A stretch of 64,000 bases of DNA from a virus. Under the pieces are notes generated by a model, which was not told where the DNA came from, searched no databases, and worked only from the letters and a program-made list of their open reading frames with translations. This document shows positions 1 through 18,245 of the stretch, piece by piece. The stretch is taken from the IMG/VR virus record IMGVR_UViG_3300010391_001464, positions 26,145 to 90,144 of that record; one strand, given 5' to 3'. Position numbers and translations under genes: made by a program. Each line of letters begins with the position of its first letter. Position 1 is the stretch's first letter.

Positions 1-321
1 GGAAAAGAAATCCAAATAATGATGGACTCAGATTTAAATTATATTTGGGATTCTGATCAACAAAAACCACATTTGTACCTAGCTACATTATTAAAAGAAA
101 TTTTAAACTCAATAAAATTTGATAAAGAAGTTAGAACTGTATATCATCAATTCATTAAAGAGTTTACTGGATCTGGTTGGCATGGAGGAGACCCACAAGG
201 TAAATATATTTTACCTAGTGGTGCTGTCCTAAAAGAGACAATTGTAGGAACTATGGATATTTCTAAAGATATTGATATTAGAGATACTTTATTGATTACT
301 GAATGGACTAAAGGAAGATAA
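1..321 (+). CDS. Hypothetical protein, 3' part (frame open from the window edge)
   Basis: Frame of the 19..321 ORF has no stop back to base 1. Confidence 0.6.
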   Translation, partial: GKEIQIMMDSDLNYIWDSDQQKPHLYLATLLKEILNSIKFDKEVRTVYHQFIKEFTGSGWHGGDPQGKYILPSGAVLKETIVGTMDISKDIDIRDTLLITEWTKGR

Positions 322-356
322 AGATATAAAAACCATTAGTATGGAAAGGGGTATTT

Positions 357-695
357 ATGAAAATTAAAAGCGATTTTGTGACTAATAGTTCTAGTTCTTC
401 ATATATAGTATATATTCCTAAAAATGTAACATTTGATAAGTTAAAGATACAAGATAATATTGAAGGATCAAACTTGGCAAGTTTAGAAAAAGTTTATAAC
501 GAATTACTAAAATCTAAAAAGTTTAATGAATATGACAGTTCCGAAATATTTAGTACTCTTAGAACATTCTTATATAATAATAAGTTAATTGTGAGTTCAA
601 TAGATACGGGACCTGATTTTGGTTCTATTATATTGGTAGATTTAGAATCGATAAATAAAATAAATGAGAGGTTTTCTGATGATACGAATAGCTAA
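357..695 (+). CDS. 'FVTNSSS'-motif protein
   Basis: N-terminus MKIKSDFVTNSSSSSYIV; paralogous N-termini at 63166 and 63621. Confidence 0.8.
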   Translation: MKIKSDFVTNSSSSSYIVYIPKNVTFDKLKIQDNIEGSNLASLEKVYNELLKSKKFNEYDSSEIFSTLRTFLYNNKLIVSSIDTGPDFGSIILVDLESINKINERFSDDTNS

Positions 696-1700
696 CTGGT
701 TATTGACAAGAAGATGTAATCTTAAATGTTCTTATTGTGCTATTGCAATGGATTATCCTAAAATGCCATTAGAATATCCTGAAATGGCTCATTATTCAAA
801 ATATGAAATGAGAACTGAAATAGTATTAGATTATTTAGAAAGACTTAAAGCTCATAATCCAAATATGTTTCATATTTTCTATGGTGGTGAACCGCTCTTA
901 AGAAAGATCTTCCTGAAATAATTAAGTTTTGTAATGATAAAGATATTCAATATACTATTATTACAAATAACTCAAATGCTATTCAACCCGCTTTAAATGA
1001 ATTAGTACAAAAAGTTGGAACTTTAAAAGGACTAACTTCTTCAGTTGATCCTATAATTATGAGGTCTGACTATTCCGATTTAGATAGATTAAAGAAAAGT
1101 AAGGCTGGATTTGAAAGATTAACTGAATGGAAGAAAAAAATAAATGACGTAGTTGCAGAAGTAACAGTGGATGAAGAAATGCTAGATGATTTAATACCAT
1201 TAGTATCAATGTTAACCGAAAATGGTATTAGTAGTTCTATAACATTTGTGGATATTTCAAAAAGTAAATATTATGATTTTTCAAATATAACAGATGAAAA
1301 AGTACTAGTCAATAAGAGTGAAAAAGTAAGGAATATTCTTAAAGAATTGGAAAATGATAAATATGACGTTCATATGGCTAAAGAGCTATTGCCTAGGATT
1401 TATGATATATTACCATCAAATCTAGATTGTGGACTTGATAAGAATGTGCATAATTTAACCATAGATGCTGATGGGTCTGTCAGATTATGCCTTAGAGTTA
1501 GAGGATGTAAAACATCTGACCATTATCTAGATGAATATATTAACTATGATGGAAATATAAATGATAATCTATTATATAATATTAGAGAAGATAAAAAAGA
1601 GTTTTGTCTTAGATGTAATTGGACATGTGGAATCATGACATCTTTAATTGAAGAAGGAAGTTCAAATTATAATAAGTTAGTACATTCTGATAGGAGATAA
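679..1700 (+). CDS. Radical SAM protein with Cys-rich (SPASM/twitch-like) C-terminus; frameshift near 905
   Basis: CNLKCSYC (CxxxCxxC) and YGGEP; one added A gives RKDLPEIIKFC...YTIITN joining ORF 1059..1700; DADGSVRLC and CLRCNWTC. Confidence 0.85.
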
Positions 1701-1705
1701 TTATT

Positions 1706-2035
1706 ATGGCTAATGTAATTAAAACTGCAGTTGAATTTTTGCAAAGAGTTAAAGAAGGAGATTTTGTTTTAATTAAGTTTGTTAAAAAAGATGGTACTGA
1801 TAGAATTATGAAGGCCACTTTAAATTTTTTAAAAATACCAAATGATAAAAAACCTAAGGGAGTAGATTTAGTAAAAATTTTAAAACTACTTCAAAATAGC
1901 AAAATGCTTAGAGTTTTTGATATAGAAAAAATGGACTGGAGAACTGTACCATTTGAATCAGTTGAATGGTTAAAAACCTTGGATAAACAAAGAAAAATAA
2001 CAACATATACTATCGAAAAAAGAATAAAGGAATAA
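1706..2035 (+). CDS. WYL_2/DUF2693-like SH3 beta-barrel phage protein
   Basis: F.KKDG..R.M.ATL and VFD.EK.DWR motifs. Confidence 0.65.
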   Translation: MANVIKTAVEFLQRVKEGDFVLIKFVKKDGTDRIMKATLNFLKIPNDKKPKGVDLVKILKLLQNSKMLRVFDIEKMDWRTVPFESVEWLKTLDKQRKITTYTIEKRIKE

Positions 2036-2371
2036 TTGAAATTTATGAGAATAAAAAAGAATCTATCTCTCGCTATATTAGAAGTAGATACTAAAACAGG
2101 AAAACTTTGGTTAAATTCACCAGGATGTGTACTAAGAATTAGTGGAATAGAATTTATTAACAAATCTATAACAGATAAATTTTCTTTTATTGATATTATT
2201 GATAATAAAGCAGTATTAATAAAAGGAGAAGCATCATCTTATTTTGATGAAAACTTAAATGATTTTCTAATACAGTTAATTCAACTAATGCATTTAAATC
2301 TACAAGAAAAAACTAATATAATACAAAAACAATATTATAAAAAATTAATGAAAGTAATTAAAGAGTTTTAA
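2036..2371 (+). CDS. Hypothetical protein
   Basis: ORF track; abuts upstream gene. Confidence 0.55.
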   Translation: MKFMRIKKNLSLAILEVDTKTGKLWLNSPGCVLRISGIEFINKSITDKFSFIDIIDNKAVLIKGEASSYFDENLNDFLIQLIQLMHLNLQEKTNIIQKQYYKKLMKVIKEF

Positions 2372-2443
2372 GGAGTAAGATTAATAAAATATTATTTGTT
2401 TAAAATGTAGTAGAAGTGGTATTAGAATAACTTAAACCTCTTA

Positions 2444-2818
2444 TTGGAGAAAGTAGTGACAATTCTAGATGAAATTTTAAAAGAAATAAAAGAACCTGAT
2501 ATTGATAATAAAATTAGACAAATATGTGATAGAATAGCAGAAGAAGAAAAAGTAAAACATAGCCTCCCACCTGAAGCACCAAAAGGCCCAAATATTTTTC
2601 TAGTTCTAGAAACTTTCCCAATTAGTAACTATGATAAAAATTATACATTTTTGACATTAGAACGAGAGTCGTACGGAAAATATATAATTGGAGTTTGGAA
2701 AGAAATTGAAATTGGAAAAGTTAGAAGAGTTAGAGTAATAGATATTAATGAAGACGACCCGAAAAGAATTATAAGAAAATATGCAGAGAAATACAAAGTT
2801 ATGACTATTAAAAAATAA
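2444..2818 (+). CDS. Hypothetical protein
   Basis: ORF track. Confidence 0.55.
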   Translation: MEKVVTILDEILKEIKEPDIDNKIRQICDRIAEEEKVKHSLPPEAPKGPNIFLVLETFPISNYDKNYTFLTLERESYGKYIIGVWKEIEIGKVRRVRVIDINEDDPKRIIRKYAEKYKVMTIKK

Positions 2819-2902
2819 CTGAAAGGGTAAAAATATGTCCATTCCGAAACCTATAGAAAATAATACAAAAGAAGTAGAAATTAAAATTAAAAGAATAAAG
2901 AT

Positions 2903-5536
2903 ATGATGAATTCAAATTCTATATTAATATCTCCCAATCAAGTAAGTATAGTATCAACTGATTTATTTTATACACATGTTGGAGAATCTAGTGTTGTTGA
3001 TCCAGTGGCTAGAACAGTAAAAAAAGTGATAAATAGTGAAGATTTTATACGTAAAGTTTCTTCTAGAATGTATCCAGACACATCTAGTAAACTTCTTCCG
3101 CCTAATTGTAGATATCATAAATCTCTACCAAATAATCGAAGTATAGTTGTTATAGAAGAACAACCTCAAATGAGAACTATTTTAACTAGTAATCAAGTTA
3201 GTAGAGATATTGAAGCTTTAAAGAAAACTGGAGCATGGGAACAATATGGATATAAGGGTCTTGAAAATACAAAATATGGTTTAGGGGATGGTTCATCATT
3301 TAAATTTACTTTATCTTTTCCATATATAGTATATATTATGTCATTTAATGGAAATGATTTATGCAATATGACTATATATTTCAGACTGTCTCCTATAACT
3401 ACATTGAATGATTATTTATTATTAGCCCCTTTACATAATATACCACAAGATCAAAGAATATGTTTAGGTTCATGGAGGGACTCCAAAACTATATCTGGTT
3501 CAGTATCCGAAGAAGTAGAAAAGGTAATAACTACTTTTTGGTCTGGAGTATTTAATATGGATTATACAAATAATTGTCTAAAATACTCAGACGTGTATGA
3601 ATTAAGCAACTATTTTGTATGGCAATATTTCTCAAAAACTAATCCAATGTTTATTTTTAAAGTTAAATGGCATCAATGGAATAGTAATTTAATTACTGAA
3701 GTAAAACGTCTTCAGAGTATTCTTGGAGTTGGTACTAATACTGTGCCGTTTAGTTTTCCAGCTCTATGTGATGTATTATTATCTCCTACATTAGTTGCTG
3801 AAGAGGAAAAATCTCCTGATGTAAAGTTTCCTCTTTTTGAAAATTTTGTGGAGTCAATACATCTAGGAAACGGAAGTCTCTCAATTGGAGATGACATTGT
3901 TTATCTAGGAAAAAAATATTATATAACAGACTTTTTGGGAAATGTTAATTACAGTAATAGTCCCAGTTATATAGTTTTTACAGATGAAGAAGGTAAAAAG
4001 GATTCACTTAAATTAGACAGTAATACTAAAACAGAATTAAATAGTGTATTTGCTACAACAAAAGAATCAAAAACTATTAAATTACCTGCTTGTGGAGTTA
4101 CTATAAATATTGGAGATATAGTAGAATTTACTGTAGATGAAACATTTAAAGGATATAGAAAAGTTGAAAATATCAGACTAGGTCTTGATAAGAGAAACCA
4201 TATTAGACTAGGGAATGACTATTATTTTGCAGATTCTTTAAAAGTAAAAATTCTTGACTTAAGTAAAGGTATTGAACTACCTAACGGAACTACTATTATA
4301 ATCGGCAATACATATTCATTTTTAGTAGATATAGGAACTTCATTACCAATTAAAAGAATTTTTGATGTAAAAGTTGAAGAATATATAGTACAAAGTGATA
4401 AATTAGCCATTAAAATAAGATACTTAGAAGGTGGAAGACTTGAAATTCATGATATCCATAATCTTTCCAATTTAGGAAATATTATTGATTTTTCTAAATT
4501 AGAAATAGTAGAATATAAAGAGAAAGTATTAAGACTTGGATTTAATTTACTAGACTTTAAAAAATCAATATTTGAAAAAGCATATATAGATACTAACAAT
4601 TTAGATTTATATGTTAAATATACTCGAGCAGCATCAGAAAATTATGGAACTTATCCGATACAACAATATTTAAGTCAAAACTTCCCTCCATCTATAAATG
4701 ATATATTAATCGAAAATAGACAAAGATTATTTATTCCTAGTTTTGAATTTAATATAGATTTTAAAATTGGAGATAATGTAGTAGTTGCTGATTGGTCTAA
4801 TCCTCAAGAAATATTAAAAGTAAGAACTATTCAAGGATTTACTTTCGATGAGTCAACATATCTTTTAAATATAATTGTTAATGATCCAATAACTAATACT
4901 TCAAAGGTAGTTCCTTATGTAAATCTAGATCTAAGATTAGTAAAAGTTGGAAGTGTTAGAAAAGTATCTATAAAGCAAAGTTCTTATGAGATAGGAGATC
5001 AAATAAGAGCAATGTCAAGAGGAATTGCAGATTTTCCAATGAAAGATACTGTTTCTATTGTAGCATTTTTAATTGATACTGGAATTGAACCAATGGTGTT
5101 ATGTTCAAATTTAGCAACTATATGGTTCAGTGATTTGAGGAAACATTTTGCTAAAGTTCCTGGTAAGAATATAACAATAGATCCATCTACATTTAAGAAG
5201 TTTACAACAAGTCCAGGAAATATGGTAATACTTGGAAGAGATAGTTCTTGTCCATGTTTTATATTAGAATATACAAAATCTCCACAAGATGTAGAAATTA
5301 TGGAACAAGAGAAATTATTTAGACCAAGACTTATTGATCCACAAAAAGGAGGTTCTGTTTGTAGTGCTGAAGGATCATTAACCTATCATTTACCATATGG
5401 AATTCCAATTCCAAGACTAAGCCAAGCAGAATATATGAGTAAAAAATTACAAAAATGTTATATGAATGCACATGGTAGTTATATAAAGAATAAAAATTCA
5501 CAATATGGAATAAGAGCTACTAAGTTTATGAATTAA
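2903..5536 (+). CDS. Large protein with N-terminal prokaryotic E2 family D-like (PRTRC protein B-like) domain
   Basis: LSFPYIVY...LLLAPLHNI...RICLG...TTFWSGVFN pattern; adjacent to JAB and ThiF genes. Confidence 0.65.
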   Translation: MMNSNSILISPNQVSIVSTDLFYTHVGESSVVDPVARTVKKVINSEDFIRKVSSRMYPDTSSKLLPPNCRYHKSLPNNRSIVVIEEQPQMRTILTSNQVSRDIEALKKTGAWEQYGYKGLENTKYGLGDGSSFKFTLSFPYIVYIMSFNGNDLCNMTIYFRLSPITTLNDYLLLAPLHNIPQDQRICLGSWRDSKTISGSVSEEVEKVITTFWSGVFNMDYTNNCLKYSDVYELSNYFVWQYFSKTNPMFIFKVKWHQWNSNLITEVKRLQSILGVGTNTVPFSFPALCDVLLSPTLVAEEEKSPDVKFPLFENFVESIHLGNGSLSIGDDIVYLGKKYYITDFLGNVNYSNSPSYIVFTDEEGKKDSLKLDSNTKTELNSVFATTKESKTIKLPACGVTINIGDIVEFTVDETFKGYRKVENIRLGLDKRNHIRLGNDYYFADSLKVKILDLSKGIELPNGTTIIIGNTYSFLVDIGTSLPIKRIFDVKVEEYIVQSDKLAIKIRYLEGGRLEIHDIHNLSNLGNIIDFSKLEIVEYKEKVLRLGFNLLDFKKSIFEKAYIDTNNLDLYVKYTRAASENYGTYPIQQYLSQNFPPSINDILIENRQRLFIPSFEFNIDFKIGDNVVVADWSNPQEILKVRTIQGFTFDESTYLLNIIVNDPITNTSKVVPYVNLDLRLVKVGSVRKVSIKQSSYEIGDQIRAMSRGIADFPMKDTVSIVAFLIDTGIEPMVLCSNLATIWFSDLRKHFAKVPGKNITIDPSTFKKFTTSPGNMVILGRDSSCPCFILEYTKSPQDVEIMEQEKLFRPRLIDPQKGGSVCSAEGSLTYHLPYGIPIPRLSQAEYMSKKLQKCYMNAHGSYIKNKNSQYGIRATKFMN

Positions 5537-5546
5537 TGGAGGATTA

Positions 5547-6743
5547 ATGTTTAACGTACATATTAATGATGGATCTAAACCAATACCCAATGATGATATT
5601 TGTTATATTATTGGAAAAGATGGAATATATTTAAAGAAAAAATTAGGAATGGTTGAAAGTTGTACAAAAGTTGATAATATTTCAATATTAAATCCAGTAA
5701 ATATATATGGAAAGATACATCTTCCTAAAATACCATCTAAAGTATTTTGTAAAGTAGTCTCTTTCTTTAGAGCAGCATATGAGAAATATAAAGGTGAGTC
5801 AGCTATAGTTTTATATTTCAATGAAAAAAAGAATCAATATAAAATTGTAGTACCAGAACAAAAAGTTTCTGGTGTTGCAGTTGATTATGAAGTTGATACA
5901 GAACAGACTGTTCCTGGATATAAATTAGTAGGTACTATTCATAGTCATGCCAATTTTGGCGCTTTTCATTCAGGAACAGATCAAAATGATGAAAAGAATT
6001 TTGATGGACTTCATATAACTGTAGGAAATGTAGCCGAACCTGATGGGTCATTTTCTTTATCTACTTCTGTAGTTATAAATGCTTCAAGATTTATTGAAAA
6101 ATCTGAAGATTATTTAGAAGATGTTATTTCTACAGATGGCGAAAAGAAAACATTTGTTGTAGAAGGAAAAATATATGAATATATATCTCAGGCTAATAAA
6201 GATAGATTTATATTTAAAGATAATGTAAAAGATGAAGATTTTGAATTCAACCCAAAATGGATGGATAAGGTTGAAGCAAAGAAATATATTACATATTATA
6301 GTGCTGGAAATAGTTATACACCACATTGGCAAAATTGGTTCGATCATGATGATTATGATCGAATGATGCAATATAGAAAAGATGCTCCTTATCGATATAA
6401 AGGCAAATATTGTTATAAAAATGCTAATGGAAAACATAGTAAGAAAAACGGTAATAGGAGAAACGATAATATTATACAATTTCCTAATGAGAAGCATGAA
6501 GAAGATTTACAAATTAATATGTTTAAATTAAATGAAGCAGAAAGAAATACTCAAACTGATGTTCCATGTGAGAAATGCATCTATAAAGATTTAAAATTAG
6601 ATATTATAATTGATGAAATAGATGAACAAGCTGAAGAATTAAAAGAGGAAAAAGATGAGTTAAGACAATATGTTAGACAAATGTATCCAGATTTACCAGA
6701 TAATGAGGTAGATAAAGTAATGGAGGGTATGCATTTTGAATAA
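5547..6743 (+). CDS. JAB/JAMM (MPN+) metalloprotease
   Basis: Upstream Glu (GESAIVL) plus HSHANFGAFHSGTD = HxH-x7-S-x2-D. Confidence 0.88.
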   Translation: MFNVHINDGSKPIPNDDICYIIGKDGIYLKKKLGMVESCTKVDNISILNPVNIYGKIHLPKIPSKVFCKVVSFFRAAYEKYKGESAIVLYFNEKKNQYKIVVPEQKVSGVAVDYEVDTEQTVPGYKLVGTIHSHANFGAFHSGTDQNDEKNFDGLHITVGNVAEPDGSFSLSTSVVINASRFIEKSEDYLEDVISTDGEKKTFVVEGKIYEYISQANKDRFIFKDNVKDEDFEFNPKWMDKVEAKKYITYYSAGNSYTPHWQNWFDHDDYDRMMQYRKDAPYRYKGKYCYKNANGKHSKKNGNRRNDNIIQFPNEKHEEDLQINMFKLNEAERNTQTDVPCEKCIYKDLKLDIIIDEIDEQAEELKEEKDELRQYVRQMYPDLPDNEVDKVMEGMHFE

Positions 6744-7434
6744 TATTAAAATAGTAGGTTTGGGTGGTATTGGGTCTGTACTAATAGAATCTATTTCAAG
6801 ATTTTTAAACTATTCCATTCAATCACAAGATCCTATATATATAACTTTAATAGATGGAGATGTTTTTGAATCAAAAAATTATGAAAGACAAATCTTTCAT
6901 ATGTTAGGTAATAAGGCCGAAGTTAAAACTAAAGAACTTCAAATGAAATTTGATAGAGTAAATTTTAAGGCCATAAATTCTTTTGTTAATTCAGAAAATA
7001 TTTCAAGTATAATTTCGAACGGTGATATATTGTTTTTATGTGTTGATAATCATAAGACAAGAAAATGTGTATCAGATTTCTGTAAAACTTTAGAAAATGT
7101 TACTTTAATAAGTGGTGGTAATGAAATTACAGATGGTAATGTTCAAGTCTTTATAAGAAGGGAGGGAAAAGATTTAACTTCATCACTAACTGATTATCAT
7201 CCTGAGATAGAAAATCCTACAGATAAATCTCCAGATGAAATGAGTTGTGAAGAATTAAGTAAATCAGCACCACAACTATTTTTTACTAATCTAACTGTAG
7301 CAACTATTATGTGTTGGACATTTTTTAACTTTGTAGCAAATAATAAAGTCACAACATATTCAGAAATATATTTTGATATTAAAACAATGAGCACGTTACC
7401 AAAATTTAGAAAAGTGAAACAAAAAGCAGCTTAA
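6736..7434 (+). CDS. ThiF/E1-like adenylyltransferase
   Basis: VGLGGIGS, IDGD..E.KN..RQ, NKAE, CVDN...R, candidate catalytic Cys in MSCEE. Confidence 0.9.
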   Translation: MNNIKIVGLGGIGSVLIESISRFLNYSIQSQDPIYITLIDGDVFESKNYERQIFHMLGNKAEVKTKELQMKFDRVNFKAINSFVNSENISSIISNGDILFLCVDNHKTRKCVSDFCKTLENVTLISGGNEITDGNVQVFIRREGKDLTSSLTDYHPEIENPTDKSPDEMSCEELSKSAPQLFFTNLTVATIMCWTFFNFVANNKVTTYSEIYFDIKTMSTLPKFRKVKQKAA

Positions 7435-7550
7435 ATAAACTTTTTAAATTCAAACAGTCCTTATTTTAAAATGATAATTATTATGTTTATTTTCTTAAAA
7501 GATTCCTAATTATCATAAACCTTTATAAACAAAAAATTAGGAGATATAGA

Positions 7551-8111
7551 ATGGATAGTAAGTATACCTATGAGAATCTTGAAGTAATGACAGTTGCAGA
7601 ATTAAAGGGAATTGTAAAGGAACTTGGTGTTACTGGTTATAGTAAGTCCACAAAATATGATATTATTGATATGATTCTTTCAGAACAGGGAGTAGAAGTA
7701 ACTCAAGAAAATTTAGCAGAGAAGACTATTGCAGAGTTAAAAGACATTGCAAGAAATCTTGATATGAAGGTTGAGAAGGGTGTTACCAAGGCAGATTTAT
7801 TAAACAGAATTCTTGCAGTAGATGCAGGCGGTAAGGATGAAGTACATGCATTCGGTGGTAACATAGAAGCAGCACATAATATGGTTCAGGGTGGTCCTGC
7901 AACTATTACCGTATCATGTGGTGCTTCTGGTGGTAAATTTCCTGTTATCGGAAAGACAGTTAATGCAGTTGCAGATTTCTTAAAAGAAATCCTCAACATT
8001 GATCCGACCGCAACAGCCATGGTTAACGGCGAGTCAGTCAAAGGAAACTTTGTACTCGGTGAGGGTGACAACGTCGAATTTGTAAAGCAAGCTGGATCAA
8101 AAGGCTGCTAA
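7551..8111 (+). CDS. Ubiquitin-like (beta-grasp) protein with two N-terminal Rho-N/HeH-like repeats
   Basis: Repeats ENLEVMTVAELKGIVKELGV / ENLAEKTIAELKDIARNLDM; C-terminal AMVNGE...VLGEGDNVEFVKQAGSKGC (ThiS/MoaD/Prok_Ub-like); SD AGGAG. Confidence 0.8.
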   Translation: MDSKYTYENLEVMTVAELKGIVKELGVTGYSKSTKYDIIDMILSEQGVEVTQENLAEKTIAELKDIARNLDMKVEKGVTKADLLNRILAVDAGGKDEVHAFGGNIEAAHNMVQGGPATITVSCGASGGKFPVIGKTVNAVADFLKEILNIDPTATAMVNGESVKGNFVLGEGDNVEFVKQAGSKGC

Positions 8112-8118
8112 TTAAATA

Positions 8119-8161
8119 AAAATCCGAGGATTTAAAAATAGTACAAATCCTCGGGTTTTTT
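8119..8161 (+). terminator. Intrinsic terminator after the Ubl gene
   Basis: CCGAGGATTT...AAATCCTCGG stem followed by a T-run. Confidence 0.75.
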
Positions 8162-8281
8162 AATTGAAAAATTAAAAAAATAATTTAAAATAATACAAAA
8201 ATATGCTTCAAAATATAAAATAAATTCGGAATCTAACTGTTTTAATAAGAACATAATAAATGATATGGAGGTGCAAAAATT

Positions 8282-9223
8282 TTGCATCAAGATATAGAAA
8301 GAATAAAAACTGTAAATGAGTTCTTAGAAAAAACTTCTACAACTACATATATTACTATATGTGTTATAGGGATAGGAACTCTAGGTGGATTTCTTTCTAG
8401 ATGCATCTCTGACCTGGAAGAAGTAACTGAATTATGCATAATTGATTATGATATTATAGAAGAAAAGAATTTAATAAATTCAATATACACATATGAAGAT
8501 CTGGGGCAGTATAAAGTAGATGCATTAGAAAGAATAATTAAAAGAGAGAATAAGAATATAAATATAACAAAAATAAACGAGAGATATATTGAAAGTAAAA
8601 CGATTCTACCGAAGAAATATGATTTAGTTTTAGATTGTAGAGATTTTACTTATGACAGACTAAAAGAAATATCTGCTCGATTATATATTACATCAAGATA
8701 TCTTATTATCGATTGTAGAAAAAATGTAACATATGATACTCATACAGAAGGAAAGTATTTATCTTTTTTAAGTAAAAATGATTTAAGATATGCAAGCGTT
8801 GAAGCAACAATGTTGATTATTAAAGGTGGTTTAAAGTTACTTATAGAAAATGAGTCAGTTATGTCAATTGAACTAGATCATCTAGATAGAAAAGTACATG
8901 ATGACATTTCAAAATCAAAAGAAGTAGATATTATATATGAGCCTCACCAAAATGAAAAAAGATTCGTTAATTTAAAAGAAGTATTTAATTTGATAATCGA
9001 ATATAATAAACTAAACGATTTAGTCATATGCTTGGGCAGTAAAAACGATTCCAATATAGATAAACTTGTTCAAAGGTCAAGTCTAAAAAGTTATCAAGAT
9101 GTTTTACAAGTTTTAATGCCGCTAGTTTCTCTTCCCTATACACATTCAAGCTATCTAATTAAATTACAGATAGTAGATAATAAATATTATATTGAATTAT
9201 TACCTGACACAGGAGCCGCGTAA
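8282..9223 (+). CDS. Second ThiF/E1-like protein
   Basis: IGIGTLGG, IDYD.IE.KNL, YKVDAL, LDCRD; TTG start after GGAGGT. Confidence 0.8.
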   Translation: MHQDIERIKTVNEFLEKTSTTTYITICVIGIGTLGGFLSRCISDLEEVTELCIIDYDIIEEKNLINSIYTYEDLGQYKVDALERIIKRENKNINITKINERYIESKTILPKKYDLVLDCRDFTYDRLKEISARLYITSRYLIIDCRKNVTYDTHTEGKYLSFLSKNDLRYASVEATMLIIKGGLKLLIENESVMSIELDHLDRKVHDDISKSKEVDIIYEPHQNEKRFVNLKEVFNLIIEYNKLNDLVICLGSKNDSNIDKLVQRSSLKSYQDVLQVLMPLVSLPYTHSSYLIKLQIVDNKYYIELLPDTGAA

Positions 9224-9910
9224 ATGATCCCATTCAAACACGAAAAAGTAGGAGACATTGAAAGCTTCAACTTTAATATAGAAATAGTTCCGGAATTTAT
9301 ACAATATCAAGGAAAGATTAAGAAAATTGTAAAAATACCAAATGACTATTTCAAGATTAGAGAGTTTAGAATTATAGTAAACAAAAATGTAGTTGAAGAT
9401 TTAATTATAATGAATGCATTTCATCCAAATGCAACTCCAAATCCTAATGAAGTAGGACTAAAATTTGGAGAAACACCACCTTATATTCAATTTTTCTGTC
9501 TTCCAGAAAATTTGAAGAATAAAGATATGGGAATAGATTTTAATATTGAGCATTATATAGAATATTTTATCCAAATGTTAAAAACATATAACTATGATTC
9601 ATCTTATTGGATAAGATGGAATGGATTTACTCTAATTGATTATGAACATGTGATAGATAAAGATGATAAAAAGTTAGAGAAAAAAGGTAAGAAGGAAAAT
9701 CTTAAGTCTGCTTTAAAAGACTTAGGTACTTATGTAATATCAGATACTACTAATGCAGCTAAAAAATCATTATCAGAAGTAGTTTCATCTGATAATTTTA
9801 GGTTTCCTAGAAGTTCTTTTGAACTGGAATTGAGGATGGATCAACTATTATTACAACTAGAAAGAAATTTAATATTAGCGTTGCAACGGAGATTAGATGG
9901 TAAACAATAA
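9224..9910 (+). CDS. Putative E2/UBC-like protein
   Basis: AFHPN...FFCLP...MLKTYNYDS resembles the UBC HPN motif and catalytic Cys; abuts ThiF gene. Confidence 0.45.
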   Translation: MIPFKHEKVGDIESFNFNIEIVPEFIQYQGKIKKIVKIPNDYFKIREFRIIVNKNVVEDLIIMNAFHPNATPNPNEVGLKFGETPPYIQFFCLPENLKNKDMGIDFNIEHYIEYFIQMLKTYNYDSSYWIRWNGFTLIDYEHVIDKDDKKLEKKGKKENLKSALKDLGTYVISDTTNAAKKSLSEVVSSDNFRFPRSSFELELRMDQLLLQLERNLILALQRRLDGKQ

Positions 9911-10091
9911 AGAAGATTCATTAGAAGTAGTTATAAGAAAAATGATTCATAAAGAATTAGAAATAGTTGAACGAGAAAAGGTTGACCAACTTGTAAAAGA
10001 ATTAATTCCTGAGTTAGATAAATTAATTTGTATTAAGGTTAAAGAACATCTAAAAGGAATTGCAGAATTTATATTAGAAAAGACTAAGTAA
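9897..10091 (+). CDS. Small hypothetical protein
   Basis: ORF track, SD GGAG. Confidence 0.55.
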   Translation: MVNNKEDSLEVVIRKMIHKELEIVEREKVDQLVKELIPELDKLICIKVKEHLKGIAEFILEKTK

Positions 10092-10110
10092 TATATGGGG
10101 AGGTTTATGG

Positions 10111-12813
10111 ATGCCCAAATTTTTAAATTTTCATGAATTTTGTAAAGAGTTGCCAGAAATAACAAGTGTAAAAATTATAGATAAAAAAAATTTCCATTCA
10201 GAAGGTTTATTTTCTGAGCAGATCTTTGGACCATTAAATAATTATACATGTCAATGTGGTATTTATTACGGCTCATCAAAGGATGGTTATTTATGTCCTG
10301 AATGTAATGTACAAGTTGTAAATAGTGATGAGAGGAGAAGAAGATTTGCAAAAATTATACTTCCTATTCCAGTAGTAAATCCATTATTTTATGATATGTT
10401 AGTAGATATTGGAGATGGAGATTTAAAAGATATATTAGATGAAATTATGAAAAGTGATGTTAGTATTATGTATAAAGATAAAGATGTTTATTATGTTACG
10501 GAACAAGGAAAACAACCGGAAGGAGTAGAAACCTGGGAACGACTTGATGCAATATATGAAGTAGTAAGTAATATCTCAAATAAATTAGCTGAGAAAGGAA
10601 TCGAAGAGTGGAAAATAGTTAATAAAAATTTAGATAATCTAATAATAGATCAGATTATCGTGTTACCACCTGACTTACGGCCAGCAGCTAAGGGAATTGA
10701 GAGAAATAATCAAGTACTTGACCAAATTAATAGGTACTATGCTCAAATCCTTCATAAGAAGGAATCTATGAAGGATACAATTATTGATATTGAAAAAGAT
10801 AAGAAACTATATTATAGTTATTATAGGCAAATTCAAAAAGATGTGTCAGAACTATATAAACATATACTTGAAAAACTTTCTAAAAAAGAAGGACTAATTA
10901 GAGGAAATATTTTAGGGAAAAGAATTGATTTTTCAGGAAGAGCAGTTATTGTTCCTGACCCAACTCTTGACTTAGATTCATGTGTATTACCTTATCTTAT
11001 GTTTTTAGAATTATTTAAACTTCAAGTATCTAAACGATTAATATATAAAGGAAAGTTTAAACTTCTCAATAACGCAATTGATTTTGTTGATAAATGTATT
11101 GAATTAAAAACTACATCATTATTTAGAATATGTGAAGAAATTGCAAAAGATGAAGTATGTATTTTAAATAGACAACCATCTTTACATCGTTTAAGCATGA
11201 TAGGTTTTAATATAAAAATATCATTAGATGAAGTAATTAAAATTCATCCATTGGTATGTCCTGGATTTAATGCTGACTTTGACGGGGATCAAATGGCAGT
11301 ATATGTTCCTATTACTGAAGTCACTAAACAAGAAGTTAAAGATAAGCTTCTAATGTCAAAGAATTTAAATAATCCATCTGACAATAGTTTGAGTACTACT
11401 CCTAGCCAAGATATTATTTTAGGTCTTTATTCTTTATCTGCAAATTTATTTCCAGATTTACTGGAAATAGTTGAATTTAAAGGAAGAAAGATTACAGAAA
11501 GTAGAAAAATTGTAAATGAATGTTTTCCAGATGATTATCCAATAGTAGATGAAGAGTTAAAAAAATTAAATATTATAAAAATTTTGAATGATATTAAAGA
11601 CAGATATCCTGAATCAGTTATAAAGGAAGTATTAGATAAAACTAAATTAGTAGGTTTTAAATATTCTACATTGTTTGGTTCAACAATGGCATTAAATGAA
11701 TGTTACCTTAAAGATGCTGACAAATATAAACAAATTATTTATTCTGAACAAGCAATATCACAACAGTTGAATAGAGTTTCTTCTAATGAAACCAAAGACT
11801 TAATGAAAAAGAACTTTAATTATGCATATACAGTTGAATCTGGAGCTAGAGGAAGTTGGGATCAAGTTAGACAAATCATTTTAACTAGAGGATTTATATC
11901 TAACTTTAAAGGACAGATACTTCCAGTTCCAATTAAACATAGTTTAATAGATGGATTAAATCAAGAAGAATTTTTTCTATCAACATATGGTTGTAGAAAA
12001 GGACTTCTTGATGTAGCTTTAAATACTGGAATCTCAGGTTATTTATCTAGAAAATTAATATTTACTTGTTCAAATCTTCAGTTAGATGAAAACTTAAAAG
12101 ATTGTGGAACTACCGATACATTAAGTATTTTTGTAAAAGATGAAAAGAAAGCAAAAATGTTAATCGGTAGATGGTTTGTAATTAATAATAATTTAATTTT
12201 GATTACAAAGGCTAATTACGAATCTTTTGTAGGTCAAACTTTAAATTTAAGAAGTCCAATATTATGTAAAAGCCCAAAAGTATGTACTACTTGCTATGGA
12301 GATTTATATAAATCTTTACATAGTAAATTTGTAGGAGTTATATCAGCTCAGTCTTTAGGTGAATGTAATACTCAACTCGTTCTCCGCACGTTTCACACGA
12401 GTGGAGTTGCATCTGTAAAAGATAAGATAAATAATAAAGATATGATCCAACAAGATATTATTGGAGATTTATCTTCAGTGTCTAAAATGCTTCATAATTT
12501 TCAAGGAAAAAATTATACAGATTTAGTTAGTAAGCTTTTTGAGGTATATAATAATAGTAGAAAAATTCATCATGTTCATTTTGAAGTATTGGTTGCACAA
12601 TTGATGTGGAATAATCTCCATAAGTGGAGATTATTAGAAGATAGAGATAAAAAAGAAATACAATTTTACTCAGTTCAAACTGTGCCAGCAAAAGAAAGTT
12701 GGTTGTTAGGTTTAGCATTTAGCAACCCAAAGAAAAATATCCTTAGTGGTATTCTTTATCCTGGAAACTATACTGGAGTAATGGATAAAATTCTATGTGG
12801 AGAAAAGATATAG
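10111..12813 (+). CDS. rpoC: Phage multisubunit RNA polymerase beta'-like subunit
   Basis: NADFDGD catalytic motif, GKRIDFSGR, LNRQPSLHR, SGYLSRKL bridge helix, TQLVLRTFH trigger loop, two Cys clusters. Confidence 0.97.
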   Translation: MPKFLNFHEFCKELPEITSVKIIDKKNFHSEGLFSEQIFGPLNNYTCQCGIYYGSSKDGYLCPECNVQVVNSDERRRRFAKIILPIPVVNPLFYDMLVDIGDGDLKDILDEIMKSDVSIMYKDKDVYYVTEQGKQPEGVETWERLDAIYEVVSNISNKLAEKGIEEWKIVNKNLDNLIIDQIIVLPPDLRPAAKGIERNNQVLDQINRYYAQILHKKESMKDTIIDIEKDKKLYYSYYRQIQKDVSELYKHILEKLSKKEGLIRGNILGKRIDFSGRAVIVPDPTLDLDSCVLPYLMFLELFKLQVSKRLIYKGKFKLLNNAIDFVDKCIELKTTSLFRICEEIAKDEVCILNRQPSLHRLSMIGFNIKISLDEVIKIHPLVCPGFNADFDGDQMAVYVPITEVTKQEVKDKLLMSKNLNNPSDNSLSTTPSQDIILGLYSLSANLFPDLLEIVEFKGRKITESRKIVNECFPDDYPIVDEELKKLNIIKILNDIKDRYPESVIKEVLDKTKLVGFKYSTLFGSTMALNECYLKDADKYKQIIYSEQAISQQLNRVSSNETKDLMKKNFNYAYTVESGARGSWDQVRQIILTRGFISNFKGQILPVPIKHSLIDGLNQEEFFLSTYGCRKGLLDVALNTGISGYLSRKLIFTCSNLQLDENLKDCGTTDTLSIFVKDEKKAKMLIGRWFVINNNLILITKANYESFVGQTLNLRSPILCKSPKVCTTCYGDLYKSLHSKFVGVISAQSLGECNTQLVLRTFHTSGVASVKDKINNKDMIQQDIIGDLSSVSKMLHNFQGKNYTDLVSKLFEVYNNSRKIHHVHFEVLVAQLMWNNLHKWRLLEDRDKKEIQFYSVQTVPAKESWLLGLAFSNPKKNILSGILYPGNYTGVMDKILCGEKI

Positions 12814-12814
12814 G

Positions 12815-13828
12815 ATGTACTTTTGCGATTATGGTTGTGGTAATGAAGCAATAATTACGTTCAAAAATGGAAAAAAGTGTTGCCAAGAAAAATATTCAAA
12901 ATGTCCCGGGTTACGAAAAAAATATAGTAACCCGGGATCTAAAAATCCAAGATTTGGTAAGCATTGGTCTGAGGAATGGAAAAAAAATCATTCTGAAAAA
13001 TTAGTAGGAAGAAAGATTAAAAGAACTTTTATTCCTATAAAATTAGAAGAAGACAAAAATATCTTATGTGATTTTTGTAATAAAAGACTAGCTAAGTATA
13101 AATTAAATAATGGAAAAAATTGTTGTGAAGAACATCAAAGTAAATGTCCAGAAATAAGAGTTAAAATAGGAAAAAAAATAAAAGGAAAAATGGTTGGTAT
13201 AAATCATCCATTTTTTGGAAAAACTCACACAGATGAAGTTAAACAATTACAATCTATTAGAGTAAAAGGAAATAAATATAATTTAAATACATTAAATAAG
13301 ATAAATAAAAAGTATCCATTTTTTTCAGAGATTGAAAATACAAAAGAGATAAATGGAAGTTTAATAGTAAAATGTAAACATTGTAAAAAATGGTTTGAAC
13401 CTACAAGATCTCAGTTATATGAAAGAATTTATGCTATAAAAAATAAAGGGACTATTCATGATACAGGAAATTCATATTTTTACTGTTCTTCTGAATGTAA
13501 ACTAGAGTGTGTATATTATTACAGAAAAAAAGATCCTGACATTCTAAGAGAATATGAAAGATATAAACAAAATGTATTAAAATATACTAATAGAAATATA
13601 AAATTTAACTTTGATAAAATCGAAAATTCAAGTAAAAAAATAAATGGAGATAACTTAGAACTGGATCATAAATTTTCAATATATTCAGGTTTTATAAATA
13701 ATATTGATCCAAAAATAATTGGTCATTGGAAAAATTTAAAATATATAAAAAAAGTAGAAAATAGAAAGAAAAGAGAATCTTGTTCTATAACTATTGAAGA
13801 AGTTCTTTCATATTCACAGGAGGTTTAA
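12815..13828 (+). mobile_element. Free-standing HNH/NUMOD3-type homing endonuclease between the RNAP genes
   Basis: NPRFGKHWSEE and HPFFGKTHTDE NUMOD3 repeats, CxxC motifs, C-terminal ELDH...HWKNL...N..K. Confidence 0.8.
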
Positions 13829-13832
13829 AATA

Positions 13833-16800
13833 TTGAATATTATTAATCCTAATTTTAAAGTTAATGAAGATAAAAATATTTTTAATATTAGACAAAAGGA
13901 ATTTGATAACTTAGAACCTTTAATAAGACAAACTATTTCTCCAGTAGAGGAACTTGGTTTTACTGTTAAAGAATTTGGAATCAGAGAAAGTAGATATACT
14001 GCAGGAGATCTAAGTAAAACTTTAAAACAAAATATAGTTATTAAACTTGAGAAAAATAGTACTGATATAGATATAACTTTAGCAATGCCAACATTGGTTG
14101 ATAAAAATTATATAGTTATAGGTGGAAGAAAAAAAATTCCTCAATTTCAATTATTTGATGTTCCAGTTATAACAAGAGGAAAAAGTACTAAAATAAGAAC
14201 GAATGTTGCTACAATTATAGTAGAAGAGGAAAAAAATCCACCATTTATTAGCGTAACTGTATTAAGTAAAAAAGTTCCACTTTCTCTTATTATTTTTGCT
14301 AAATATTCTAAACAAGAAATTATTGATAGATTTAAATTAGTGGACCTTGATGAGGAGTCATTAAAAAGAGATAATTATTATGAAAAATTATTATATGATT
14401 TAAAGAAAACATATATTGAAGCAATAAATTCTGAAATGACTCAAGATGATTTTATTAAAGCTCTCGGTGAGTACTACTCAAAATATAATGCTAAAGTAAA
14501 AGGTGAAGATGTCATATATGCTTTAGATATTATGTTAAAAGTAGATATTATGACCGCTAGATTTTTTAAATCTAAAAATATCATAGATGAAATAATTGAA
14601 GTAATAAAATTAGGTGAGATTGATGATCTAGATTATAGAAATAAAAGAATTAGATGTTTTGAGTATATAGTATTAGCAAAAGTTTCAAAAATTATATTCG
14701 ACCTTTGTACATCAAATAGATCGCTAAAACAACCAAAATTTAATGTAAATTCTACTCAAATTTTAACTGAATGTAACGTGTCTGATATAGTTCAGTTTGA
14801 TTTTTCTATTAATCCTATAGAGGAATTAACTAAACTATCTAGAGTAAGTTTAGTAGGCCCAGGTGGTTTTGATAAACAAAATATTCCGGAGCATCTAAGG
14901 GATGTAGCTCCTACAATGTTTGGAAGAATATGTCCAGTTGATACTCCAGATAGAGAAAATTGTGGAGTTCAGCATAATTTATTACCAAATGTTGATTTAG
15001 ACGAAAATCTTAAATTTACAGATAAAATCCTAGATAAACAACCAATATCTATTCCAGTAGCAATGGTTCCATTCCTAGAACATGATGATCAAACCAGACT
15101 TCAAATGTCTTCTTCACAAATGAGACAGGCAATTATGTTAAAGGATTTTGACCAAGCATTAGTACAATCTGGAATAGAAGGAATATATACTGATCAAACT
15201 CAGTTTTTAAAACGTGCTAAAAAAGATGGAGAAATATTATATGTAGATAATAAATATATAATAGTTGTTTATGATGATAAAGAAGTTGAAATATTTGATA
15301 TATCATATAGAAAAATTTATGTAGGAAATATGGACATATTCAAAGTCTATATAAAACAAGGAGACAAAGTAAAGCGAGGTGATATATTAGCTGAAAGTAA
15401 TTATTGCCATGATGGAAGGATACAATTTGGAAAGAATTTATTAACAGGTGTAATGATTCATTATGGTTATAATTATGAAGACGGTATAGTAATATCAGAT
15501 AGATTAGTAAAGGATGGAATTCTTACTTCTCCTCATTTTGTAGATTTATCATTTAATATCCCAACTAATAAGGTTTTATTAACTCTTGATTCTAAGAAGT
15601 ATAAACCCTTGCCAGAAATAGGCGAAGAGATAAAAAATGGTAATCCCTACGCAATAATAAAAGAAATGCCAACAGATAACATGGTTGATTATTATACTGT
15701 GTTCGAAGAATCAAATCCATTATTAACTAAAAATGACACGATTGTAACTGAAGCAAACATATTTATTAATGAATGGAATGAGAATATTCCAGAATTTAAT
15801 CATTGGGTTAAAGATGTAATTAAAAAGCAAAATAGAGAAGAAGAACAATTTCAAGGAATTCTTAATGAATATTTACCGAAAGACTCAGCTACTAAATTTA
15901 TAAAAGATAATGATTTAGATAAATTTTCATCAGTTGGTAAATATAAAATAAAGAATGAAAAAATAAATGGTATTCATGTAGAAATGTATGGAATATTCTT
16001 TAGGCCTATAAAGGTCGGAGATAAAATTGGAAATAGACATGGTAATAAAGGTATAATTTCAAATATAGTACCACATGATAAAATGCCAAAGTTAGAGGAT
16101 GGTAGACATCTTGATATTTGTATAAATCCACTTGGTATTATATCTAGAATGAATATTGGTCAATTATTTGAATTACATTTAACAATGTCTATTAATGATT
16201 TAAAGAAAAATCTTTTAGTAATGTTGAACAGTAGTTCAAATACTAAACAGATTGATATGAAAAAATATTTAATAGAATATATTAAGATTTTAGATAATAC
16301 TGTTGGTAATTGGTATTCTTGTCAGTTCATATCTCAAATTCCAAAAGTTATAGATGAAAACTTTATAAATAATTTATTTATAGTTCAACCACCGTTTGAA
16401 TCAACTCCAATACAAAAGATTGAAGAGGCATTAAAATTTACAGGTACTAATTTTACTTATAATTTACATGATCCTATTTCTAATCATAATTTCTTAAATA
16501 AAATAGCAGTAGGTTATATGTATTTCTTCAGAATGGTACATATAGCTGAAAACAGACTAGCGGCTAGAGGTATTGCATCTTACGCTAGAAGAACTCTTCA
16601 ACCATTAGCAGGAAGAAAAAACCGTGGTGGACAAAGATGTGGAGAAATGGAAACTGCATGTTTAATTGCGCATGATGCCCCACATAATTTATATGAATTT
16701 CAGACTACTAAATCTGACTGTATAGATTTAAAAAATAAATATATTCGAGAACAAATAGAAACAGATTTAGTTAAAGAAGAAAAAGAGATTGATTCTGTAT

Positions 16801-16862
16801 CAGAGTCAGTTAAATTACTGAATGCATACCTCACTGTAATAGGTGTAGATCGTAAAAACTAA
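13833..16862 (+). CDS. rpoB: Phage multisubunit RNA polymerase beta-like subunit
   Basis: GRICPVDTPD, PFLEHDD, YNYEDG, GDKIGNRHGNKG, SRMNIGQ, GGQRCGEME; TTG start after GGAGG. Confidence 0.97.
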   Translation: MNIINPNFKVNEDKNIFNIRQKEFDNLEPLIRQTISPVEELGFTVKEFGIRESRYTAGDLSKTLKQNIVIKLEKNSTDIDITLAMPTLVDKNYIVIGGRKKIPQFQLFDVPVITRGKSTKIRTNVATIIVEEEKNPPFISVTVLSKKVPLSLIIFAKYSKQEIIDRFKLVDLDEESLKRDNYYEKLLYDLKKTYIEAINSEMTQDDFIKALGEYYSKYNAKVKGEDVIYALDIMLKVDIMTARFFKSKNIIDEIIEVIKLGEIDDLDYRNKRIRCFEYIVLAKVSKIIFDLCTSNRSLKQPKFNVNSTQILTECNVSDIVQFDFSINPIEELTKLSRVSLVGPGGFDKQNIPEHLRDVAPTMFGRICPVDTPDRENCGVQHNLLPNVDLDENLKFTDKILDKQPISIPVAMVPFLEHDDQTRLQMSSSQMRQAIMLKDFDQALVQSGIEGIYTDQTQFLKRAKKDGEILYVDNKYIIVVYDDKEVEIFDISYRKIYVGNMDIFKVYIKQGDKVKRGDILAESNYCHDGRIQFGKNLLTGVMIHYGYNYEDGIVISDRLVKDGILTSPHFVDLSFNIPTNKVLLTLDSKKYKPLPEIGEEIKNGNPYAIIKEMPTDNMVDYYTVFEESNPLLTKNDTIVTEANIFINEWNENIPEFNHWVKDVIKKQNREEEQFQGILNEYLPKDSATKFIKDNDLDKFSSVGKYKIKNEKINGIHVEMYGIFFRPIKVGDKIGNRHGNKGIISNIVPHDKMPKLEDGRHLDICINPLGIISRMNIGQLFELHLTMSINDLKKNLLVMLNSSSNTKQIDMKKYLIEYIKILDNTVGNWYSCQFISQIPKVIDENFINNLFIVQPPFESTPIQKIEEALKFTGTNFTYNLHDPISNHNFLNKIAVGYMYFFRMVHIAENRLAARGIASYARRTLQPLAGRKNRGGQRCGEMETACLIAHDAPHNLYEFQTTKSDCIDLKNKYIREQIETDLVKEEKEIDSVSESVKLLNAYLTVIGVDRKN

Positions 16863-16906
16863 CTAAAAGAAGGGATATATTTATATATCCCATAAGGGAG
16901 AAACAA

Positions 16907-17203
16907 ATGACTACTGTAACAATCGTAACATTAACTATCGAACAAGTAAAAGCTTATTTTGAAGGAAAGGGTCTAAATGTTGAAGATCCTGGAACCACTA
17001 ATCTAACTTATAACAAGATGTTAGTTATAGAAAAAGATGCTGAAGCAACATATGGCAAAGAATTTTCAAAGTTCGTACGTAGTATCTGGGACAAAACCAC
17101 AAAAGAGTCAGCAACAGGAAAGCGTAAATTTTGGAATTACTTTCCAAAGTACAAGTCATGGAATGATTTGACAACTGCCTATACTGCCTCTATAAAGAAG
17201 TAA
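16907..17203 (+). CDS. Hypothetical protein
   Basis: ORF with SD GGGAG. Confidence 0.65.
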   Translation: MTTVTIVTLTIEQVKAYFEGKGLNVEDPGTTNLTYNKMLVIEKDAEATYGKEFSKFVRSIWDKTTKESATGKRKFWNYFPKYKSWNDLTTAYTASIKK

Positions 17204-17974: not shown

Positions 17975-18245
17975 GGACCTTAGTAAAAATCAACAAGCAG
18001 TTCAAGCTGGACATGTAGTAGCTCAATATCTATTACATGTCCAGAATCATTCATGGACTAACGGAACATTAATCTATCTCGGAGTTGATAATAAAGAAGA
18101 GCTAGAGATATGGGGAGATAAATTAGACATGCAAGGATTAAACTGGGTTGGATTTAAAGAACCTGATTTGAATAATGAAATGACTGCATTAAGTATTGCT
18201 TCAGATGAAAATCCTTTCAAAAGATTAAAACTAATGGAATTATAA
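17949..18245 (+). CDS. Pth2-like peptidyl-tRNA hydrolase
   Basis: KLFVLVRKDL....QAVQAGH and FKEPDL...TAL motifs of the PTH2 fold. Confidence 0.75.
   Translation: MKLFVLVRKDLSKNQQAVQAGHVVAQYLLHVQNHSWTNGTLIYLGVDNKEELEIWGDKLDMQGLNWVGFKEPDLNNEMTALSIASDENPFKRLKLMEL

Follow-up and report, generated by a model that had tools for sequence, protein, structure and literature searches.

A putative ubiquitin-like conjugation cassette beside the RNA polymerase genes of an uncultured jumbo-phage lineage

Introduction

In prokaryotes, the only role demonstrated by experiment for conjugation of ubiquitin-like (Ubl) proteins is, to date, host anti-phage defence (i.e., type II CBASS Cap2/Cap3, Bil, and Bub). 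A further class was predicted for bacteria in 2006 by Iyer, Burroughs and Aravind, who described its protein types and their co-occurrence as operon class 6d (PMC1779556); it is named PRTRC in NCBIfam (TIGR03734-03742). Here we analyse a related cassette in 64,000 nucleotides of viral DNA (IMG/VR record IMGVR_UViG_3300010391_001464, positions 26,145 to 90,144), referred to here as the window, whose own numbering we use. The cassette encodes, in order, an E2-like protein of 877 amino acids (aa) (giant E2, or E2D), a JAB/JAMM metallopeptidase, a minimal ThiF-type adenylating enzyme (E1), a Ubl, a second and divergent E1-like protein (ThiF2), and a small E2-like protein (Table 1). Our data suggest that it is probably a working E1-E2-protease-Ubl conjugation system that is core to an uncultured lineage of jumbo phages. 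The chemistry known from host defence is thereby predicted on the virus side, as a positionally fixed core of a large giant-phage lineage. We found no description of a phage system of this kind in full-text literature searches or in a jumbo-phage review (PMC7824862). For four of its predicted features no counterpart has been described: the tag has a head that binds nucleic acids, one E2 is 877 aa long, a second E1/E2 pair is probably transcribed with the viral polymerase, and the HPN motif classical for eukaryotes occurs in an E2.

Comparison with described systems

The cassette shares with the PRTRC/6d class a Prok-E2_D-type E2 without the classical His, a JAB protein, a minimal ThiF-type E1, and a small Ubl with a C-terminal Gly. 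Furthermore, PRTRC families are the best named-family matches of the phage JAB protein (TIGR03735, PRTRC_A) and E1 (TIGR03736, PRTRC_ThiF). However, both proteins score under the NCBIfam cut-offs (39.7 versus 101.8 for PRTRC_A and 53.9 versus 144.75 for PRTRC_ThiF), E2D and the Ubl have no NCBIfam match, and family scans gave no ParB-type match, either in the open reading frames (ORFs) that they covered from 1059 to 17203 or among the upstream genes of one relative, L003. Since the cassette is without ParB and its scores are far below the cut-offs, it is not a PRTRC member. It also differs in being phage-borne and lineage-core, in the 600-aa extension of its E2, in the helix-extension-helix (HeH)/Rho_N heads of its Ubl, and in a second E1/E2-like pair linked to polymerase genes. 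The cassette is most likely a ParB-less relative of the PRTRC/operon-6d class.

Type II CBASS (PMC10097602; bioRxiv 10.1101/2022.03.31.486616) resembles the cassette in having E1-type and E2-type modules beside a JAB protein. ThiF2 matches Cap2 E1 domains (PADLOC 2e-11; PDB 9e-10), and what is activated could, as with Cap2-cGAS, be a non-ubiquitin protein whose tail ends in small residues. In contrast to the Cap2 E2-E1 fusion, the phage E1 and E2 are separate proteins in reverse order, a true beta-grasp Ubl is present, and the candidate tail belongs to the phage E1-like protein itself. No CD-NTase or effector was seen in the block, and nothing in it beyond the ThiF proteins matched PADLOC. Bil (BilABCD) and Bub (PMC10557695, PMC11601596) are likewise operons of Ubl, E1, E2, and peptidase, and BubB and BubCD are among the matches of the phage proteins. 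Both are host defence systems, however, whose sequence kinship with the phage cassette is at superfamily level only, and Bub uses oxyesters and a Ser protease (PMC10557695, PMC11601596) whereas the phage cassette has invariant Cys residues and a JAMM peptidase.

Those bacterial E1/E2/JAB systems that have been characterised are phage defences (PMC10097602, PMC10557695, PMC11601596), and ThiF2 resembles Cap2 E1 domains. The cassette might accordingly serve mainly to neutralise host Ubl immunity (Bil, type II CBASS, or Bub), either by JAB stripping or by tagging of defence proteins. Anti-defence genes are usually patchy, whereas this block is fixed in approximately 55 contigs beside core replication and transcription genes, and deconjugation would need the protease alone. 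We regard a counter-defence role as quite unlikely; it concerns biological role and is compatible with a conjugation mechanism.

The eukaryotic ubiquitin system offers a last comparison. The small E2 has the HPN motif, in most members with a Cys eight residues on, and a UBC-like core, and relatives of the Ubl occur head to tail as in polyubiquitin. The phage Ubl differs in being ThiS-like and in ending Lys-Gly, the small E2 is approximately 145 aa without the N-terminal helix, and no RING or HECT E3 was seen.

The Ubl protein

The Ubl has two Rho_N matches in Pfam. Its AlphaFold2 model, built on a 63-row alignment (mean predicted local distance difference test, pLDDT, 85.5), contains two HeH modules and, at residues 119-178, a domain of beta-beta-alpha-beta-beta order (pLDDT 90-97). 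A Foldseek search of the PDB returned almost only Caldiarchaeum ubiquitin, ubiquitin, NEDD8, SUMO, Urm1, TtuB, and MoaD, with a probability of 1.00 and template modelling (TM) scores by target of 0.56-0.69; the small size of the domain limits the E-values to 4e-3 to 1e-2. An earlier note on this DNA had set beforehand the fold of this C-terminal domain as the point on which its reading would turn, and both the model and Foldseek identify a beta-grasp. The fold is a modelled one, since a profile search of solved structures returned the Rho_N part only.

The Ubl ends ...AGSKG-C, with Gly185 at 8103-8105 and the extra Cys at 8106-8108. G182, K184, and G185 are invariant in the family. Of 52 distinct homologues, approximately 36 have Lys-Gly as their very last residues and approximately 14 have Lys-Gly-Cys, like the window copy. 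A profile of the beta-grasp domain only, run against 1.84 billion proteins, recovered 1708 representatives (50%-identity clusters), of which 571 have E<=1e-10; in the best 150 of these 1708, the domain lies nearly always at the extreme C-terminus. Five relatives (P0098, P0099, P0101, P0120, and P0176) carry 2-4 units head to tail, each junction reading ...AGKKG and then the next unit, with a short cap last. Judged by their sequences, these poly-Ubl proteins have the architecture of polyubiquitin. A scan of IMG/VR for P0098 gave no match. The window beta-grasp matches the ThiS model at 17.9 bits (E=0.0046) and the poly-Ubl relatives reach the Pfam cut-off with up to 67.8 bits (best E-value in relatives 1.3e-18), a pattern that indicates kinship of the Ubl with ThiS. 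In one further locus (L054, 983-2356) three Ubl genes stand in tandem after the E1 gene, the first without a terminal Gly and the other two ending ...AGKKG.

The E1 and JAB proteins

The 232-aa E1 matches ThiF at 81.5 bits (cut-off 28.1) and PRTRC_ThiF at 1.5e-14. We found 43 invariant columns in 46 sequences, which include GLGGxG (G8-G13), DGD, E..KN..RQ (R51/Q52), K60, DNH..R, D104, and C171, the last in the segment EMSCEEL...PQL..TN. The nearest PDB entries to the E1 profile are the ThiF-type protein 9egc, MoeB, UBA5, Uba4, ThiF, MccB, and BubCD. From its invariance and position, we infer that Cys171 is the thioester site. The JAB protein matches Prok-JAB at 27.1 bits (cut-off 25) and PRTRC_A at 3.7e-10, and it is PRTRC_A-like over its N-terminal 170 residues. 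Its metal motif is intact, as had been noted earlier, and reads H132-S-H134-x7-S142-x2-D145, conserved in 49 sequences.

The two E2-like proteins

The 877-aa protein matches Pfam Prok-E2_D (PF14460) at 18.3 bits (E=0.002), and its N-domain alone at 20.9 bits (3e-4); 34 of 41 homologues match the same family at E<=0.1, with a best value of 1.2e-7. Asn179 (3437-3439) and Cys187 (3461-3463) are invariant in 41 N-domains, and Asn-x7-Cys is the classical UBC spacing. The classical His is absent and the residue that precedes the Asn is variable, as has been described for this prokaryotic E2 class (PMC1779556). An Atlas model of the protein aligns to viral Prok-E2_D clusters (TM 0.74, normalised by the match), while a search of solved structures with the N-domain profile gave nothing usable. 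Relatives outside the clade are only 240-350 aa long, so the extension of approximately 600 aa is a clade feature. Its last 240 residues hold a conserved block at aa ~700-745 (...PLVLCSN..T.W...) for which we detected no relative, a profile search of the PDB giving no sequence match, and a search for internal repeats in the extension found one weak pair only (aa ~326-373 versus ~620-675, hhalign 67%). By analogy with E2/E3 hybrids, the extension may be the part that selects targets.

The small E2 belongs to a family without a Pfam entry that is typically approximately 145 aa long and occurs in 50 loci and in 76 clusters of a large protein database. The window copy, at 228 aa, has no match in Pfam, PADLOC, or NCBIfam family scans. 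Across 45 sequences P23, H67, N69, and C92 are invariant and P68 is at least 90% conserved. Most members read HPN-x8-C; in the window copy, an insert of 14 aa widens this spacing, and a long helical part extends the C-terminus. The two best PDB matches of the family profile are E2 enzymes aligned at HPN...C, with non-significant E-values of 0.26 and 0.48, and Pfam UQ_con is the commonest weak match (3 of 45 members, best 0.055). The structure model has a pLDDT of 80 and gave no clear match in Foldseek. C-terminal helices dominated a first VIA structure search. All VIA matches that cover residues 1-138 are E2 or UEV proteins (approximately 40 entries, Z 4.2-5.7, root-mean-square deviation 3.4-4.5 Å over approximately 100 residues), and they include UBE2K, UBE2S, UBE2D, UbcH7, UbcH10, Ubc9, UBE2A, Pex4p, CDC34, bacterial BubB, and the Tsg101 UEV domain. 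Motif and modelled fold agree, although the Z values are modest (all <8).

Overall, both proteins that had been called E2-like carry E2 features, namely Prok-E2_D with Asn-x7-Cys in the large one and HPN...Cys with only UBC-fold matches in the small one. Kinship between the two families was not shown (hhalign probability 1.2%).

Conservation of the cassette

A profile of 16 Ubl homologues identified 58 loci in IMG/VR, across which gene presence was tallied by phmmer/jackhmmer. A scan of IMG/VR with the single 877-aa protein gave no match, while an alignment-based scan recovered the loci. Wherever a contig is long enough the gene order is fixed: radical SAM/SPASM - WYL_2 - (111-aa ORF) - 124-aa ORF - E2D - JAB - E1 - Ubl - ThiF2 - small E2 - small ORF - beta' - beta. 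E2D is approximately 860 aa long in this syntenic block. The Ubl was found in 55 loci, E1 in 53, JAB in 51, E2D in 45, ThiF2 in 55, the small E2 in 50, and beta' in 54. Synteny in related phages had been proposed as a check, and the same order in approximately 55 contigs is far beyond chance; the block is for this reason a core feature of a jumbo-phage lineage.

Distant contigs (L051, L057/L058, L066, and L067) keep a four-gene core of E2D-JAB-E1-Ubl with no adjoining ThiF2, small E2, or polymerase genes; in L057/L058, the E2D is a 482-aa protein (hhalign, 98%). We also searched one genome per species for 185,579 prokaryote species. Only six loci were found, all on contigs of metagenome-assembled genomes (MAGs); four of them match the gene sets above and two do so in part. 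The cassette family therefore looks essentially viral.

Conjugation or sulfur transfer

We favour a conjugation system on several grounds. First, all enzyme classes are present and their catalytic residues are invariant in 41-50 homologues. Second, the Ubl is a predicted beta-grasp of ThiS kinship, most of whose homologues end at Lys-Gly or Lys-Gly-Cys. Third, the block is syntenic in approximately 55 contigs and its four-gene core is kept in distant ones. The poly-Ubl relatives, the UBC/UEV-only matches of the small E2, and the failure to find a rhodanese or a consistent sulfur-transfer partner point the same way. The claim that the virus carries its own protein-tagging system is supported as far as sequence and models go.

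Several points weigh against this reading. Conjugate formation is a prediction from the cassette, and literature searches found no biochemical test of any PRTRC-type system. The Ubl ends Lys-Gly and not Gly-Gly, and its ThiS score is below the Pfam cut-off. The Prok-E2_D score of the window protein is under the Pfam gathering cut-off of 25 bits, the catalytic Cys of E1 is placed by invariance rather than by structural alignment, and the UBC-fold Z values of the small E2 are middling, all <6. The cassette also has, as a conserved neighbour, a radical SAM/SPASM gene for which a conjugation scheme offers no role. Finally, ThiS-family Ubls that have an E1 and a JAMM peptidase as partners include sulfur carriers.

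The last point leads to a different account of the cassette, in which a ThiS-like protein, adenylated by the E1 and thiocarboxylated, would donate sulfur for modification of nucleic acids or a cofactor, its HeH modules targeting DNA or RNA, the JAB protein maturing its C-terminus, and the Cys-bearing proteins relaying persulfide. ThiS kinship and the presence of TtuB, Urm1, and MoaD among the fold matches fit this account, and so does a radical SAM gene as conserved neighbour. The Gly-Cys end also resembles the CysO-Cys adduct that is trimmed by the JAMM peptidase Mec+. On the other side, we found no rhodanese in the phage's own record or in five large relatives, a cysteine desulfurase in only one of the five, and no consistent TtuA/ThiI-type enzyme. 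PP-loop matches occur in three of the five relatives but far from the cassette, and the one cassette-adjacent PP-loop gene that was scanned (in L051) is QueC. With 37 bits to the MoaA model (cut-off 284), the radical SAM protein is of the generic SPASM-maturase type, and known sulfur relays have no step for two E2-type proteins or for poly-Ubl forms. We consider a sulfur-carrier function highly improbable. The earlier note had stated that no sulfur-transfer, thiamine, or Moco genes lie nearby; this holds for rhodanese (six records) and for a consistent TtuA/ThiI-type partner or desulfurase, but overlooks the radical SAM/SPASM gene directly upstream, even if that gene is not of the MoaA/ThiH type.

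ThiF2 and a possible second arm

ThiF2 matches ThiF at 50.7 bits, above the cut-off, over its N-terminal half only. PADLOC models of Cap2-type E1-E2 proteins match both ThiF proteins in the E1 part only, the best (2e-11) being to ThiF2, and PDB matches (MoeB at 8e-14, ThiF, MccB, PaaA, and Cap2 at 9e-10) cover only the first ~107-120 positions. ThiF2 keeps GxGxxG, D55/D57, N63, K78, and D118, while Asn-Ser replaces Arg-Gln.

The loss of this Arg, which the 232-aa E1 keeps, and the constant company of both ThiF proteins in the main clade would fit a eukaryote-like heterodimeric E1 with one active and one degenerate subunit, the small E2 then being a second E2 for the same tag. However, ThiF2 may still bind ATP since GxGxxG, DxD, Lys78, and Asp118 are kept, it lies in a separate transcription unit behind a terminator, and the distant four-gene cassettes do without it. 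A heterodimer would also leave the conserved C-terminal tail of ThiF2 unexplained, and we judge this arrangement very unlikely.

The tail in question is near-invariant, ...(I/L)(P/E)ETGAA-COOH. Because its synonymous sites vary (four codons each for Thr and Gly), the constraint is on the protein and not on a ribosome-binding site. Cap2 adenylates the tail of a CD-NTase (bioRxiv 10.1101/2022.03.31.486616), and the small-residue tail of ThiF2 beside an E2 recalls that arrangement. We found no support for the C-terminal ~110 aa of ThiF2 as a Ubl: hhalign against the Ubl profile gave 0.2% and a PDB profile search no match. A complex prediction for ThiF2 with the small E2 (aa 1-145) scored 0.00, which speaks neither for nor against binding.

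Proposed mechanism

We propose that conjugation by the cassette would begin with the JAB protein, which would remove the single Cys after Gly185 and, in relatives, cut poly-Ubl precursors after each Lys-Gly. The 232-aa E1 would then adenylate Gly185 and take the Ubl as a thioester on Cys171. From there the Ubl would be handed to Cys187 of the Prok-E2_D domain, with the 600-aa extension choosing targets in the fashion of an E2/E3 hybrid. Joining the Ubl to a target amine would graft a nucleic-acid-binding HeH module onto that target, and the JAB protein could reverse the reaction. ThiF2 and the small E2 might handle the same tag as a second arm; alternatively, they might be a Cap2-like pair whose substrate is the tail of ThiF2 itself.

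A bolder version of this scheme, which we hold to be unlikely in its full form, is a two-arm system on which the jumbo-phage lineage depends. The giant E2/E3-like enzyme would put the HeH-Ubl on transcription or nucleoid proteins of phage or host. In the arm transcribed with the viral polymerase, ThiF2 would activate its own ETGAA tail and would itself be conjugated by way of the eukaryote-type HPN-Cys E2.

Related genes in cultured phages

In Bacillus phage vB_BceM_WH1, gp214-216 (L062, 3611-6705) form an unannotated trio of E2D-like, JAB, and ThiF genes (E2D hhalign 95%), and the E1 shares the EMSC..S.PQ..TN motif. A like trio, also unannotated, is formed by gp248c-246c of Salmonella phage Arash (L061, 1519-4539; hhalign 78%). 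No Ubl gene was recognised beside the trio in either phage. Arash gp246-248 are among 116 proteins found by mass spectrometry in particle preparations (PMC10585845). Since that list is broad and contains many enzymes (PMC10585845), the detection indicates expression and not packaging. The cassette is a testable entry into the PRTRC/6d class, and the cultured vB_BceM_WH1 and Arash make experiments possible.

Gene block and transcription units

The six cassette genes lie in the order and at the positions first noted, all on the + strand, and each family assignment is supported (Table 1). The block had also been described as running into the polymerase genes. It does so, with a 64-aa ORF preceding beta' and a NUMOD3 endonuclease gene separating beta' from beta; the two polymerase genes are of the phage-type multisubunit kind (PHROG matches 1e-94 and 5e-87).

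Table 1. Features of the gene block and its neighbours in the window
Feature	Position	Strand	Remarks
WYL_2/Sm-like	1706-2035	+	conserved upstream gene of block
111-aa ORF	2036-2371	+	conserved upstream gene of block
124-aa ORF	2444-2818	+	conserved upstream gene of block
E2D (giant E2), 877 aa	2903-5536	+	Prok-E2_D N-domain aa 1-270, then ~600-aa extension
JAB/JAMM metallopeptidase, 398 aa	5547-6743	+	JAMM motif at 5940-5981; C-terminal half variable
E1, minimal ThiF-type adenylating enzyme, 232 aa	6736-7434	+	invariant Cys171 at 7246-7248
Ubl, 186 aa	7551-8111	+	two HeH/Rho_N modules (aa 7-45, 52-91); linker; predicted beta-grasp (aa ~117-185)
Terminator-like hairpin and T-run	8120-8161	+	read from sequence; closes E2D-JAB-E1-Ubl unit
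ThiF2, divergent E1-like, 313 aa	8282-9223	+	Rossmann/ATP-site N-half; C-terminal ~190 aa; tail (D/E)TGAA at 9206-9220
Small UBC-like E2, 228 aa	9224-9910	+	His67-Pro68-Asn69 at 9422-9430; Cys92 at 9497-9499
Small ORF, 64 aa	9897-10091	+	homologue at same position in 49 loci
RNA polymerase beta', 900 aa	10111-12813	+	PHROG match
NUMOD3 endonuclease, 343 aa	12797-13828	+	inserted between beta' and beta
RNA polymerase beta, 1022 aa	13794-16862	+	PHROG match

The Ubl gene has its own 116-nucleotide AT-rich spacer and an AGGAGA ribosome-binding site on its 5' side. From the hairpin and T-run after it, we conclude that the Ubl ends one transcription unit and ThiF2 opens the next, and the gene arrangement suggests that ThiF2 and the small E2 are probably co-transcribed with beta' and beta. 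The tie of the cassette to RNA polymerase consists of this likely co-transcription and the HeH head of the tag, and we take it as a lead rather than a finding. The earlier note had suggested RNA polymerase, host proteins, or host Ubl-based defences as possible points of action, and gene position and the HeH head are the two features that bear on this.

Within the polymerase region, the product of the 64-aa ORF is helical with the motif ...MP.LD..I...VK.H... and may be a small polymerase-associated protein. The NUMOD3 ORF overlaps the ends of both beta' and beta. Homologues were found in only 2 of 58 loci, of which L053 alone has one between the two polymerase genes, and the ORF therefore has the look of a mobile homing-endonuclease insertion.

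At the other end, a radical SAM/SPASM gene (682-1700) heads the conserved block and is split by a frameshift: homologue residues 5-79 correspond to frame 1 (682-906), and residues 77-344 to frame 3 (897-1697). Possible explanations are an error in sequencing, a pseudogene, or programmed frameshifting. The protein resembles a SPASM peptide maturase, and in the relative L003 genes for SbcD and SbcC stand upstream of it. We considered the C-terminal Arg-Gly-Glu of the 124-aa ORF family as a Ubl tail and rejected it; it is probably the Shine-Dalgarno sequence of the overlapping next gene and is absent in the window.

The source record and minor observations

The record is 90 kb long and 29% complete by CheckV, and the G+C content of the window is 27%. 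Since related contigs reach up to 268 kb at 74-79% completeness, the genome is probably >300 kb. G+C content is 0.33-0.36 at window positions 18001-24000 and 0.25-0.29 in the rest of the window. The record contains four tRNA genes, one of them an amber suppressor (anticodon CTA, 18359-18430) just 3' of the polymerase genes. The cassette ORFs have no in-frame TAG and are unchanged when TAG is read as a sense codon.

One of the MAG contigs (L066, 34 kb) carries four E2D paralogues upstream of JAB-E1-Ubl (213-8243). The last three of these paralogues stand in tandem, and the arrangement looks like a set of E2s with a common E1 and a common tag. Of the six MAG cassette contigs, three (L063, L064, and L067) are binned as archaeal (Thermoplasmatales and two Woesearchaeota), and one Atlas ThiF cluster is mostly Woesearchaeota. 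The archaeal-binned cassettes have bacterial-type ribosome-binding sites, terminators, and an unsplit beta'; the archaeal assignment could reflect mis-binning or point to the host.

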